Sequence record: PQ287649.1
DNA: 64,000 bases
Origin: Pseudomonas phage HHBS47_1
Direction: 5' to 3' (one strand)
Below the pieces are notes generated by a model. It did not search any database and was not told the DNA's origin. It saw only the letters and a list, made by a program, of their open reading frames with translations. The position numbers were made by a program, and so were the translations under genes. Below are positions 56,457 to 63,583 of this stretch, in pieces. Each line of letters begins with the position of its first letter. Positions within the stretch are counted from its first letter, which is position 1.

Positions 56457-56750
56457 ATGAACGTTCAACTCCCACGATCGGTTACTCTGGACGCCTATAT
56501 TCAGCCGGACGGTACACTTATGCTGGGGCCGGGTCAGGCTAAAGTGACCATTAATTACCATTCGGATCCTCAAGAATCCATTAATGCGTGCATTGTCTTT
56601 GGAGGGGCGATGCAAGCGATTGTGACCTTTGATGAAACCGGTCAGACCCCTGTGAGTTATACGCTGTTGAATCCAGGGGGGGATTACACCGTTGAGCAGT
56701 CGGTTCTTAACATCTTGTCCTATTTCGGAGTCAGTGCTCCGATGAACTAG
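56457..56750 (+). CDS. hypothetical protein, 97 aa
   Basis: RBS aagga precedes ATG at 56457. An alternative ATG at 56439 lies inside the motif. Confidence 0.5.
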   Translation: MNVQLPRSVTLDAYIQPDGTLMLGPGQAKVTINYHSDPQESINACIVFGGAMQAIVTFDETGQTPVSYTLLNPGGDYTVEQSVLNILSYFGVSAPMN

Positions 56751-56762
56751 GAGTCATGAGTC

Positions 56763-57203
56763 ATGAACAAAGCTGAAGTGATAGAACGGTACCGCGAACT
56801 GGTCGAAGACCTCGCCCTCCCGCCGCATCAGGTGATCCTGTCGGCGGGTGCCGCCTTGGTGGTAATGGGCATCCGAGAGGAAACAAGCGACCTCGATGTG
56901 GATGTCCCTACCAGTGTGTTCAACTGGGCGAGTAAAAAGTTCGGGGTTATCGAGAACGAAACCGTGAATAAACGGGTTCAATACACTCCCCTGGTCGATC
57001 TCCATGAATACGACGAGAACACGGGAGTGGTGTGTATTGAGGGGGTGTGGTTGTACAGCCCTACGGAGTTACTGAAACAGAAACACTGGCTCACGAAACT
57101 GGCTGATCGAACGGACGTTAAGACCCAACAGGATCACCGTGATATCCGCCAACTGGAAACGCTCACTCAGTCTCAACCATTCACTGCACGCGCATTGTTG
57201 TAA
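56763..57203 (+). CDS. minimal Pol-beta-superfamily nucleotidyltransferase (MNT-like), 146 aa, paralog 1
   Basis: Motif SAGAALVVMGIREETSDLDVDV fits the NTase hG[GS]x9-13Dh[DE]h pattern. RBS aggag lies 9 nt upstream. Confidence 0.55.
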   Translation: MNKAEVIERYRELVEDLALPPHQVILSAGAALVVMGIREETSDLDVDVPTSVFNWASKKFGVIENETVNKRVQYTPLVDLHEYDENTGVVCIEGVWLYSPTELLKQKHWLTKLADRTDVKTQQDHRDIRQLETLTQSQPFTARALL

Positions 57204-57217
57204 GGTTAGGTTACGGT

Positions 57218-57712
57218 ATGTTTTACAGTCAATTGGAAGTGGTAGAAGCCGTTCAACGGTTCTCTGAGGCTCATAACACCCCTTTGGATAAGATCGCTAT
57301 TGGCGGGGGTGGAGCTATCATGCTCATGGGGGGTCGTGAAACCACCTATGATTTGAACATTTGGGTGGAGAGTCCGTTCTTTGAACGCATTGCTGAAACC
57401 CAGAACGCTCTCCTCAGTCCTATGAGAGACAATGTGTTCCACATTGAAACGGTTATTGATTCCATGGATCAAACCGATCACGTCACCACACGTCGCCATT
57501 ACTGGGTGCGTAAACGTAACCTCTATTTCCCCACTGTTCCTGTTAAGCTGGATCAATGTCCTGAAGTCTACATCTTCGATGCGATGTCACTGTTGATTCA
57601 GAAACGTGGGAGCTACAGTCGCCCTGAACGAGGACTCCGTCGTAAACAGGATTACAGCGACATCTGTTTCTTGAATGCGTTGTTAAAGGAAGAACACAAA
57701 GTCAGGGCTTAA
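57218..57712 (+). CDS. minimal Pol-beta-superfamily nucleotidyltransferase (MNT-like), 164 aa, paralog 2
   Basis: Motif IAIGGGGAIMLMGGRETTYDLNIWV has the same pattern. RBS aaggttaggttacggt precedes ATG. Hairpin at 57723-57748 downstream. Confidence 0.55.
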   Translation: MFYSQLEVVEAVQRFSEAHNTPLDKIAIGGGGAIMLMGGRETTYDLNIWVESPFFERIAETQNALLSPMRDNVFHIETVIDSMDQTDHVTTRRHYWVRKRNLYFPTVPVKLDQCPEVYIFDAMSLLIQKRGSYSRPERGLRRKQDYSDICFLNALLKEEHKVRA

Positions 57713-57780
57713 CCTTAGGACAGTACCAGGGGATCACTCCCCTGGTACGTCTTCCTCCTTATACGGTTTAGGAGATTACA

Positions 57781-61667: not shown

Positions 61668-62906
61668 ATGAAAAGCTTTATTGATGTATCGGTAGTAGAA
61701 GATGGGGGCAAACAATTCCTCTTCGGTATTACTGCGAATCAAAAGACGGGACGACCCGAAGTCGTAGGACATACCGATTCTGATTATTTCAGAGAGGGTG
61801 TTGGTCGTGTGTTTGAACAGCTTATCCGGGAAGAACAACGAAAGGAAGCTGATATTAAACTCCAGTTGGCCTTTATTAAGGCGGTCAAGGAACATCCCGG
61901 TAAACAACTGCAACTCACGCTTTGCTACAGCGCAAATGGACCGTCAGCTGGAGAATTTTATTGGGTGGAGGATCGGCGTTATACGGCTGACGGGGTGTCC
62001 TTCCTATCGAATGCTCCGGTGTGTATCTATCATAAGAACTGTCTGGATGGTACCGCGGCGGCTTGGGCGGTAAGAAGTGCACTCCCCTTGGTTGAATTGG
62101 TGGCTATGAGCTATCATGATGATCCGTACGAACTCTTTGGTTCGGGATTGGAGTATCTACAAGGGAAAACGATCTATTGTGTTGATTTCAGTTTTAAGAA
62201 AGCGGTTGTAGAAGCGATTGCTGATCTACAGGATACAGTCTTGATAATCTTGGATCATCACGAGAGTGCTCAACGGGAACTGGGTGAACTCGTCGTTGGT
62301 TATTCCGGGAAATCAACGCTGGGTGATCGGGTTGAGATTATCATCGATATGACACGTTCAGGCGCTAAGTTGACGTACGATTACTTCAACCCTCAACAAC
62401 AGACGCCTCCGGGTATTCTGGCGGTACAAGATCGGGATCTGTGGAAATGGGAGTACGAAGGCAGTAAGGAATGGACCGCGGCCGCCTTTGGGTATCCCCT
62501 CACCGTTGAGAGTTTCGATAAGCTGATTCATCGGGATTACCAAGACGTGGTGGAAGAAGGTCGTACTGTCCTTCGTAAGCAGGAATTGGATGTTGAGAAA
62601 CTGCTCCCGAGTGCGCGGCCTTACACGTTGGAGGGGTACAACTGCTTGATTGTTAATGCCAGTTATTTCCACGCCAGTGATGTAGGGGATAAATTGAAGA
62701 GTCGAGACGGTATTGACTTTGTAGTCACTTACATGGATGGTAAGGATAGCCGGATCTTCTCTCTACGGGGTAAGGATAAAGTGAACCTAGCGGAAGTGGC
62801 TGAACGTTTTGGAGGAGGCGGTCACCCTAACGCAGCGGGGTTTTCACTCTCCTACGACGATCCCCGTTTCTCCCAGTCACACCTGTTACTGTATTCCGGT
62901 ACTTAA
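61668..62906 (+). CDS. DHH/DHHA1-family phosphoesterase (NrnA/RecJ-like) with about 110-aa N-terminal extension, 412 aa
   Basis: DHH motifs YHKNCLDGTAAAW and ILDHHES. DHHA1 GGGH motif FGGGGHPNAAGF. RBS ggag precedes ATG at 61668. Confidence 0.65.
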   Translation: MKSFIDVSVVEDGGKQFLFGITANQKTGRPEVVGHTDSDYFREGVGRVFEQLIREEQRKEADIKLQLAFIKAVKEHPGKQLQLTLCYSANGPSAGEFYWVEDRRYTADGVSFLSNAPVCIYHKNCLDGTAAAWAVRSALPLVELVAMSYHDDPYELFGSGLEYLQGKTIYCVDFSFKKAVVEAIADLQDTVLIILDHHESAQRELGELVVGYSGKSTLGDRVEIIIDMTRSGAKLTYDYFNPQQQTPPGILAVQDRDLWKWEYEGSKEWTAAAFGYPLTVESFDKLIHRDYQDVVEEGRTVLRKQELDVEKLLPSARPYTLEGYNCLIVNASYFHASDVGDKLKSRDGIDFVVTYMDGKDSRIFSLRGKDKVNLAEVAERFGGGGHPNAAGFSLSYDDPRFSQSHLLLYSGT

Positions 62907-63074
62907 ATGGACACTCACACACTGTTCTTAATCATTGACCTGATAGGTAAATCCGTTTTTATTGGTGACTTAGTGACTCGCGTGGACGACCATCGACTTA
63001 TGAAGTCTATCCGATATTTGGAGAATCGGAAGGTGATTAAAACGGTTACGGTTACCCAATGTTTACGTAACTAA
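62907..63074 (+). CDS. small ORF, 55 aa, speculative
   Basis: TAAATG stop/start overlap with upstream gene. Followed by the terminator at 63095-63146. Confidence 0.3.
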   Translation: MDTHTLFLIIDLIGKSVFIGDLVTRVDDHRLMKSIRYLENRKVIKTVTVTQCLRN

Positions 63075-63094
63075 CAGGTATTCCATTTGATGGG

Positions 63095-63146
63095 GGGTGG
63101 TTAGTATACAGGCTGACCACCCTGTTCTCTCTATTTTTTTTTTTCG
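63095..63146 (+). terminator. intrinsic terminator with 11-12 nt T-run
   Basis: Hairpin ggggggtggttagtatacaggctgaccaccc followed by tgttctctctatttttttttttcggg. Confidence 0.6.
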
Positions 63147-63157
63147 GGATAAGTGGA

Positions 63158-63583
63158 ATGAATAATTACGGGTATGTGGATGTGTCCTTGGTAGGACCTG
63201 AAGTAGAGGAAATCTTTGGCTTGCTCTTGGAGTGTGGTATCGCACCGGCTGCGGAGTATAACCTGCATTGTACCCTGATGTACGATGAACAGGCAGAAGA
63301 ACCGCTGGTAAAACTGAATCCTGATGCGAAATTCACCGCCTACGTGACAGGGATTGATGTACTGGGAGATGGGTTGGTGTTTAACCTTACCAGCAAAGAC
63401 CTCGCTGATGAACACCGTAGGTTGAAAGACGGTGGATATACCCATTCCTTTGATGCCTTCTTACCGCACATGTCTGTCACCTATGACTTCGATGAATACG
63501 ACATGCTGAAAGTGAAGCAAGCGTTTGCAACCTGGGGTGGTCGACAACTCACCTTCAGTAAAGAATCGTTCGGAACCAAATAA
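63158..63583 (+). CDS. 2H phosphoesterase superfamily protein (LigT-like cyclic phosphodiesterase), 141 aa
   Basis: Two HxT/S motifs, LHCTLMY and PHMSVTY, about 70 aa apart, as in 2H phosphoesterases. Hairpin at 63596-63619 downstream. Confidence 0.55.
   Translation: MNNYGYVDVSLVGPEVEEIFGLLLECGIAPAAEYNLHCTLMYDEQAEEPLVKLNPDAKFTAYVTGIDVLGDGLVFNLTSKDLADEHRRLKDGGYTHSFDAFLPHMSVTYDFDEYDMLKVKQAFATWGGRQLTFSKESFGTK

Follow-up and report, generated by a model that had tools for sequence, protein, structure and literature searches.

We analyzed a 64,000-nucleotide stretch of Pseudomonas phage HHBS47_1 (sequence record PQ287649.1; hereafter, the window), focusing on a block of eight genes that encodes a pair of minimal nucleotidyltransferases (NTases), a DNA ligase, RNase HI, a DHH/DHHA1 phosphoesterase, a 2H phosphodiesterase, and two further proteins, gp119 and gp123. 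Bases 56400–63600 are ~97% identical at the nucleotide level, over their full length, to Pseudomonas phage EL and seven EL-like isolates. The genus of phage EL, Elvirus, is placed in the Chimalliviridae, the nucleus-forming jumbo phages. The eight open reading frames (ORFs), all on the plus strand, map one-to-one onto EL gp119–gp126 and follow an 822-amino-acid (aa) SMC/Rad50-like ATPase. A preliminary description, made from the sequence alone, had reported eight co-oriented genes after a Rad50-like ATPase, and all of them exist at the sizes it gave; it had offered two interpretations of the block, as a nucleic acid repair module or as an anti-defense module. Our analysis points to a different reading, to which we assign a probability of roughly 0.65: the genes do cluster, but they form a mosaic and not one functional cassette.

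The eight ORFs are genuine coding genes under purifying selection, since they have homologues in relatives and low ratios of nonsynonymous to synonymous polymorphism (pN/pS). Homologues of all eight were found at ~20–64% identity in related metagenomic phages, and pN/pS stayed below 0.45 in all seven block genes compared codon by codon with EL; LigA was omitted from this comparison because of a 15-nt length difference between the copies in the window and in EL. Ratios of 0–0.04 were obtained for gp118, gp119, gp121, RNase H, and the 2H protein gp126, and ratios of 0.23–0.43 for gp120, the DHH protein gp125, and gp123. Both gp121 and gp126 are 100% identical to their EL copies. None of the eight proteins matched PADLOC below an E value of 0.05, and an Rfam scan of positions 56000–64000 returned nothing meaningful. 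The features of the region are detailed in Table 1.

Table 1 Genes and other features of the gp118–gp126 region, in window coordinates. GA, Pfam gathering threshold.
Feature	Position	Strand	Remarks
gp118-like SMC/Rad50/SbcC-type ABC ATPase, 822 aa	53949–56417	+	Upstream context; phrog_77, SbcC-like, E = 2.5e-70
Promoter-like 18-mer ATTTTAAACCTACATTAT	56417–56434	+	Between gp118 stop and gp119 start
gp119, 97 aa, no assigned function	56457–56750	+	phrog_16812; pN/pS 0.04 vs EL
gp120, minimal Pol-beta-fold NTase, paralogue A, 146 aa	56763–57203	+	S27-A-G29, D43-L-D45-V-D47
gp121, predicted degenerate NTase, paralogue B, 164 aa	57218–57712	+	DLNIWV replacing DLDVDV
NAD-dependent DNA ligase LigA, 661 aa	57781–59766	+	Pfam adenylation 124 bits, OB 51.7, Nlig-Ia 41.1; HhH and BRCT
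gp123, 435 aa, EL-clade orphan	59763–61070	+	Start overlaps LigA stop by 4 nt (ATGA)
14-bp GC-rich hairpin	61080–61111	+	Terminator-like scan; 9/14 pairs GC, no clean T-tract; between gp123 and RNase H
RNase HI, 163 aa	61151–61642	+	Pfam RNase_H 155.6 bits; NCBIfam NF001236 169.8 bits vs cut-off 160
gp125, DHH/DHHA1 phosphoesterase, 412 aa	61668–62906	+	ATG start as in EL; GTG at 61653 (417 aa) possible
Gap between DHH and Acb1 genes, 251 nt	62907–63157	+	Unannotated 55-aa ORF 62907–63074; 12-bp hairpin 63094–63123, then T11 run
gp126, Acb1-family 2H phosphodiesterase, 141 aa	63158–63583	+	Pfam PF23474 43.5 bits vs GA 27

The last gene of the block, gp126, had been called a 2H protein on the basis of two HxT/S motifs, and these are indeed present, as H37-C-T39 and H104-M-S106. 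The preliminary description had proposed comparing it with LigT and with phosphodiesterases that counter the cyclic-oligonucleotide-based antiphage signaling systems (CBASS). This comparison separated the two: Acb1 (PF23474, E = 3.5e-11) was the sole family above its gathering threshold, and the LigT/2′-5′ RNA ligase-type family (PF13563) was rejected at 20.8 bits against a threshold of 27. A precomputed Acb1 label is also carried by the gp126 orthologues of four relatives in the EL clade (L005, L008, L017, and L020). A profile of four EL-clade orthologues (A2) matched the Acb1 structures 9q2g (E = 5.4e-5) and 7t26 (E = 0.018) in the PDB, with both histidine motifs in register, as well as gene 57B of phage T4, the founding Acb1 (hhalign E = 7.4e-5). 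The two gp126 motifs align with those of T4, 9q2g, and 7t26, so that the catalytic tetrad can be placed; its fourth residue (T115 in T4) is Ser in all EL-clade members. In the multiple alignment, T4 residues Y12, H44, T46, F107, and H113 correspond to gp126 Y6, H37, T39, F98, and H104. By its sequence, gp126 is a member of the known Acb1 anti-CBASS family, and it would be expected to share the activity of that family.

Acb1 linearizes adenosine-containing cyclic di- and trinucleotides in a metal-free reaction that uses the HxT tetrad; its nucleobase-stacking aromatic residues are Y12, W74, F107, and W147, and the adenine-reading E141 lies in a C-terminal lid (Hobbs et al., PMC9117128). In P. 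aeruginosa, a type III-C CBASS protects more than 10^5-fold against a phiKZ-like nucleus-forming phage (PMC10889362), and an enzyme such as gp126 would therefore make biological sense in this phage. Anti-defense annotation tools pick up Acb1 routinely. RefSeq nevertheless labels gp126 as “RNA ligase”, the same misleading legacy label that is borne by T4 57B. We also considered whether Acb1 homologues are packaged in the virion, as “structural protein” labels in RisingSun, CBB, and XbC2 might imply, and found it unsupported, given that RisingSun gp120 is missing from the RisingSun mass-spectrometry table.

The tight packing noted in the preliminary description holds for the cluster as a whole but is interrupted just before gp126, where the 251-nt gap and its terminator-like hairpin (fold z = −2.4) come between the genes for the DHH and 2H proteins. 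No homologues were found for the 55-aa ORF within this gap. EL-clade relatives carry two conserved genes, of 94/95 and 56/57 aa, in place of the gap, which suggests gene loss in EL.

The DHH/DHHA1 assignment of gp125 likewise stands, with its start corrected to the ATG at 61668, which is likely to be used rather than the GTG at 61653. The catalytic motifs HKNCLDG, VDFS, DHH, DRDLW, and GGGH are all present. In Pfam, the DHHA1 domain scored above its gathering threshold (33.8 vs 25.9 bits) and the DHH domain below (20.6 vs 28.1 bits), and the protein matched phrog_4771 with an E value of 2e-97. Motif I, H-x-N-C-x-D-G (window positions 62031–62051, residues 122–128), contains a Cys that is invariant across 30 aligned relatives and occupies the usual position of the first metal-binding Asp of DHH enzymes; DRDLW is likewise invariant throughout the family. 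A HMMER scan recovered 10,748 representative relatives, 661 of them below 1e-30, all ~270–330 aa long and matching only residues ~120–415 of gp125 (417-aa GTG-start numbering). The first ~115 residues are thus an extension specific to EL-like phages, and the remainder is a compact core of ~280 aa. We asked whether the extension could be a fused version of the small gene that precedes DHH in other phages, and rejected this candidate, as the two share no similarity. Profile searches against the PDB matched the group of NrnA, TmPDE, GdpP, PggH, and Rv2837c, with no specific placement within it.

The genomic surroundings of DHH homologues point toward nucleic acid metabolism. In five of six unrelated annotated phages, the neighbors include a ligase, RNase H, SbcCD, or nucleotide-metabolism genes: the order is LigA-hypothetical-DHH in Serratia phage 2050HW, deoxynucleoside monophosphate phosphatase...DHH...RNase H in phiCbK, and SbcC-hypothetical-DHH-endonuclease-SbcD in PaBG, and a thymidylate kinase (LucasX) or a dCTP deaminase (Noxifer) lies just upstream of DHH. 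A DHH homologue and, two genes downstream of it, a product with a precomputed Pfam label for Gad2 (anti-Gabija) occur on L021, a 63.8-kb metagenomic phage-like contig (1874–3776); our own Pfam scan did not reproduce this label. EL gp125 itself (YP_418158) was included, as construct Ph_DHH_7B, in a screen based on cyclic GMP-AMP (cGAMP) and STING that is described in a preprint on viral DHH enzymes (bioRxiv 10.64898/2026.07.21.739742). The text of the preprint names as active only mimivirus Euk-DHH-1B and Ph-DHH-3B, and EL gp125 is not among the hits given there. We regard this outcome as weak evidence against such an activity, and it applies to cGAMP in human cells only.

The region was also compared across relatives. 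The same order, comprising a baseplate gene (minus strand), an SbcC-like gene, gp119, NTase-A, NTase-B, LigA, a ~480-aa protein, RNase H, a variable slot, and Acb1, is found in the related metagenomic jumbo phages L005/L006, L008/L009, L017, and L019/L020. The variable slot is occupied by DHH in EL, L008, L017, and L019 and by unrelated genes in L005; L005 and L006 have no DHH. In Erwinia phage RisingSun, the slot holds seven other genes, including one for dihydrofolate reductase, and this phage has neither NTases nor DHH but retains LigA, RNase H, and Acb1. Among the genes that fill the slot in relatives, our scan detected no known anti-defense family. These relatives preserve the order of the flanking and upstream tail and baseplate genes just as well, and the order of the block thus reflects whole-genome collinearity and is no proof of functional coupling. 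Homologues were detected in 106 phage records for Acb1 (tblastn; mostly jumbo phages), 144 for DHH, and 20 for the NTases, and these co-localize in the EL clade only; the genus distributions of DHH and Acb1 are largely different. Since the components have independent evolutionary distributions, their co-location does not imply a shared pathway. Nothing in the region falls outside known kinds, and the points of greatest interest are the NTase pair and the true substrate of the DHH protein.

Several points weigh against this reading. In small phages, DHH is found among early hypothetical genes, in one case (L021) near the unreproduced Gad2 label, and an anti-signaling role for DHH is therefore possible. 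In several EL-clade relatives, DHH and Acb1 are separated by at most three small genes and lie on the same strand. Adjacency to replication genes is itself weak evidence in large phage genomes, and the cGAMP assay of gp125 was indirect and possibly limited by expression. As for gp126, T4 W74 aligns with Leu or Val and the W147 lid has no counterpart, so that the substrate range may differ from that of T4 Acb1; the C-terminal lid is shorter, contains no Trp, and ends in ...E136-S-F138-GTK, with E136 and F138 as candidate lid residues.

A rival reading is a unified anti-defense island, in which DHH and Acb1 would act as complementary signal-destroying nucleases and the NTase pair nucleotidylates host toxins or effectors; in one variant, Acb1 linearizes CBASS signals and DHH may clear larger cyclic oligoadenylates, cyclic di-AMP, or the linear products of Acb1. 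Beyond the Acb1-family assignment of gp126, such an island would be consistent with the degradation of cGAMP and other nucleotide messengers by DHH enzymes (a mimivirus one and one from a phage, according to the preprint), with the finding that at least four EL-clade lineages have DHH in the slot between RNase H and Acb1 (the content of the slot varies), with the pN/pS values of DHH and gp120, second only to gp123 in the block, and with the nearest NTase folds, which include MenT and the AbiEii toxin family. However, EL gp125 is not reported as a hit of the cGAMP-STING screen, DHH homologues in other annotated phages adjoin replication, repair, or nucleotide-metabolism genes and not known anti-defense genes, and our scan placed none of the variable-slot genes of relatives in a known anti-defense family. 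Moreover, Acb1 persists without DHH in L005 and without DHH or NTases in RisingSun, the genus distributions of DHH and Acb1 differ, and PADLOC recognized none of the eight proteins. We consider this island unlikely. The anti-defense proposal of the preliminary description therefore survives for the 2H protein, as an Acb1 family member, and is not supported for the DHH protein, with its housekeeping neighborhoods and no reported cGAMP hit, or for a module whose components co-localize in the EL clade only.

Examining the two NTases revealed that the earlier call of tandem minimal NTases was correct for their paralogy and for gp120 but needs correction for gp121, in which the DxD carboxylates are replaced (DLNIW). 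The two proteins are paralogues (BLASTP E = 3e-7; both phrog_12854). Neither was recognized by sequence in Pfam, NCBIfam, PADLOC, or the PDB, with single-sequence or profile searches, and the NTase fold was recognized by structure prediction alone. An AlphaFold2 model of gp120, built on an alignment of 12 homologues (mean predicted local distance difference test score, pLDDT, 86), showed a confident NTase alpha-beta fold, with MenT1, LnuA, and TM1012 as the nearest structures. The hG[GS]...DxD carboxylates are in place, and SAG...DLDxD is conserved across A-type homologues. At the DxD positions, gp121 and its orthologues carry N/S and W (PVLSVWV in L005, GDINVWV in L008, and DLNIW in the window). 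With the catalytic Asp residues lost in every relative checked, gp121 is predicted to be a conserved, catalytically degenerate partner of gp120. The BFVD model of EL gp121 (Q2Z0W0) matches the gp120 model (TM-score 0.77, E = 1.2e-9).

Foldseek searches against viral models identified relatives of this fold in the jumbo phages RP12, 201phi2-1, PhiEaH1, RSF1, Noxifer, and Phabio, and among the poly(A) polymerases of poxviruses, African swine fever virus, and giant viruses. The tandem A+B arrangement is found in the EL clade only. The single NTase homologues of Ralstonia phages have hypothetical genes as neighbors and are not close to any ligase, DHH, or Acb1 gene, and no further paralogues were found beside these homologues or elsewhere in the window. 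Assigning gp120 and gp121 to the MenT or AbiEii (DUF1814) families was considered and rejected: there was no Pfam or PADLOC match and no cognate antitoxin neighbor (the adjoining genes are gp119 and, for gp120, the degenerate paralogue), and the likeness is at the level of the fold only. Family scans also detected no antitoxin-like or HEPN-like partner adjoining gp120.

Two proposals concern the NTase pair in particular. The first combines two parts: gp120/gp121 would form an undescribed phage enzyme that transfers nucleotides to a host protein or to RNA 3′ ends, and gp125 would be a second signal-clearing nuclease, which could extend or complete the action of Acb1 on larger cyclic oligoadenylates or on its linear 3′-phosphate products. 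The former part draws on the nearest folds, namely the tRNA-modifying MenT toxins and viral poly(A) polymerases, and on the single-copy structural relatives across jumbo phages; we judge the combination to be improbable. According to the second proposal, gp120/gp121 is an RNA-tailing enzyme, a heterodimer resembling poly(A) or poly(U) polymerases that acts on phage or host transcripts and is unrelated to its neighbors. The structural relatives in the six jumbo phages named above are in line with such a function, as is the composition of the poxvirus poly(A) polymerase, which consists of a catalytic subunit and a non-catalytic partner. Yet gp120 matches small-molecule NTases (LnuA, ANT(2″)) and tRNA-modifying toxins such as MenT1 equally well or better, comprises 146 aa with no obvious RNA-binding domain, and is paired with a B-type paralogue in the EL clade only, and we thus find RNA tailing very doubtful.

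The assignments of LigA and RNase HI in the preliminary description were both supported by Pfam domains and motifs, with RNase HI also exceeding the NCBIfam equivalog cut-off. LigA has the complete architecture (Ia, adenylation with KxDG, OB, zinc finger, HhH, and BRCT), with KLDG at residues 114–117 and a CPSC zinc-finger motif, and matched phrog_3869 with an E value of 5e-179. Its NCBIfam score of 333.6 bits misses the equivalog cut-off of 369, which marks it as a divergent member. The window copy further contains a 15-nt tandem duplication (TGCGATTCTCTCCTA twice, at 58969–58998), giving CPSCDSLL-CDSLL in the zinc-finger region; these five residues are not found in phage EL, whose LigA is 656 aa long compared with 661 aa in the window. 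In RNase HI, the motifs TDGS, QELM, TDSQ, and ADQLA occur at the expected DEDD spacing, according to a pattern search made without a reference active-site alignment. RNase HI is listed as a core gene (cg47) of nucleus-forming phages. With these domains and motifs intact, both proteins are predicted to be replication enzymes.

The nature of the ligase bears directly on the repair interpretation of the preliminary description, which paired a 2H cyclic phosphodiesterase with a ligase. In the form considered here, the 2H protein would be a 2′,3′-cyclic phosphodiesterase, the NTases would restore the 3′ ends of RNA, and a ligase would reseal tRNA cut by host anticodon nucleases. Although 2H enzymes include LigT-type cyclic phosphodiesterases (hence the weak 2_5_RNA_ligase2 match of gp126), RefSeq labels gp126 an RNA ligase, the NTase fold is common to CCA-adding enzymes (with a low Z of 5.5), and some nucleus-forming phages encode the tRNA ligase RtcB, we reject this module as highly improbable. 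The ligase has the full LigA architecture of an NAD-dependent DNA ligase, gp126 passes the threshold for Acb1 only and not for the LigT-type family, and the “RNA ligase” label is equally misleading on T4 57B. In addition, a scan of the proteins encoded between 53949 and 63583 revealed neither an RNA ligase nor a polynucleotide kinase or RtcB.

The remaining protein of substantial length, gp123, appears to be the fastest-evolving gene of the block (pN/pS 0.43, the block maximum) and to be translationally coupled to LigA. Its homologues were restricted to EL-like phages among 5.8 billion proteins, in both single-sequence and 6-member-profile searches, and it is only 20–27% identical to its counterparts in L008, L005, and RisingSun (gp111). 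No Pfam, PHROG, or significant PDB match was obtained. An AlphaFold2 model from a 6-sequence alignment reached a pLDDT of 37.5, the PDB profile search gave only non-significant matches to pentapeptide-repeat and beta-solenoid proteins (E = 0.26–0.67), and a five-residue periodicity was weak (z 1–2); a beta-solenoid fold is thus a lead and not a finding. In L005, a gp123-like gene is tandemly duplicated (14555–15913; 489 and 452 aa, ~23% identical), as would be expected if this family diversifies rapidly.

At the upstream end, the gp118-like ATPase matched LmuB in PADLOC and, weakly, SMC_N in Pfam, and is 50–52% identical to its counterparts in L005 and L008. Homologues of gp119 are found in L005, L008, and RisingSun (gp105), and thus also in a genome without NTases. 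The 18-mer ATTTTAAACCTACATTAT that separates gp118 from gp119 has three intergenic plus-strand copies in the window (14242–14259; 27252–27269, with one mismatch; and 56417–56434), where 0.02 would be expected by chance, and these fall on features annotated as “putative phage promoter” in the EL record. The hairpin that follows gp123 could serve as a site of transcript processing or attenuation. Elsewhere in the window, a tRNA-Thr gene with anticodon CGT lies at 26590–26665 on the plus strand.

Taken as a mosaic, the block would be transcribed, probably from the promoter-like motif at 56417, and has three components. The first serves replication and repair and comprises the SbcC-like ATPase and, downstream of it, LigA and RNase HI. 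The latter two would provide primer removal and nick sealing, and the phage presumably needs its own copies of them because host enzymes are kept out of the compartment in which its DNA is replicated. Most likely, gp125 belongs to this same layer of nucleic acid turnover; it could be a RecJ-like exonuclease or could, as a nanoRNase or pAp-phosphatase, remove the short oligoribonucleotides that RNase H or RNA decay leaves behind. The second component is gp126, which by homology would linearize the adenosine-containing cyclic di- and trinucleotides of CBASS, independently of metal and through its two histidine motifs, and would thereby blunt a known restrictor of nucleus-forming Pseudomonas jumbo phages. 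The third comprises the clade-specific proteins, namely the NTase pair, gp119, and gp123. Most simply, gp120/gp121 would be a heterodimer with a single active site, formed by a predicted active NTase and its dead paralogue, and gp123 would be a fast-evolving, partner-like protein coupled translationally to LigA.

The assignment of gp126 to Acb1 amounts to an annotation correction, from the RefSeq “RNA ligase” to an Acb1-family anti-CBASS enzyme, and predicts that EL-group phages resist CBASS that use adenosine-containing signals. CBASS is among the few defenses shown to be effective against nucleus-forming jumbo phages, and phages of the EL group are among those under consideration for P. aeruginosa therapy. 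More generally, several nucleic acid enzymes lying side by side in a jumbo phage are not evidence of a shared pathway. The pieces of interest are the NTase pair, with its putative active and dead members, gp123 as an orphan coupled to LigA, and a DHH enzyme with a Cys in motif I.

Compared with known systems, the components of the block depart to different degrees from their closest relatives. Unlike the MenT1/AbiEii toxins, LnuA, ANT(2″), and TM1012, gp120 has no sequence-level membership in any of these families and is paired with a paralogue that appears degenerate, and the gp120/gp121 family is limited to jumbo phages. LigA and RNase HI resemble the bacterial enzymes of lagging-strand maturation in the full LigA domain set with KxDG and in an RNase HI above the equivalog cut-off, but they are phage-encoded and divergent, with a LigA score under the cut-off and a 5-aa zinc-finger duplication. 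With NrnA, TmPDE, PggH, the GdpP catalytic domain, and Rv2837c/CdnP, gp125 shares the DHH, GGGH, and Asp motifs and the two-lobe DHH and DHHA1 organization, whereas its compact core, the Cys in motif I, DRDLW, and the ~115-aa N-terminal extension set it apart from NrnA-type DHH/DHHA1 enzymes. Finally, gp126 is only ~23% identical to T4 Acb1 and differs from it in a second motif of the form HxS instead of HxT, in having no counterpart of W74, and in a shorter lid (E141...W147 in T4). It nonetheless resembles the Acb1 proteins of T4 (57B) and Erwinia phage FBB1 in size (141 vs 152 aa), in the catalytic pair, and in its equivalents of Y12 and F107, and, like them, it is encoded by a lytic phage whose host genus carries CBASS.

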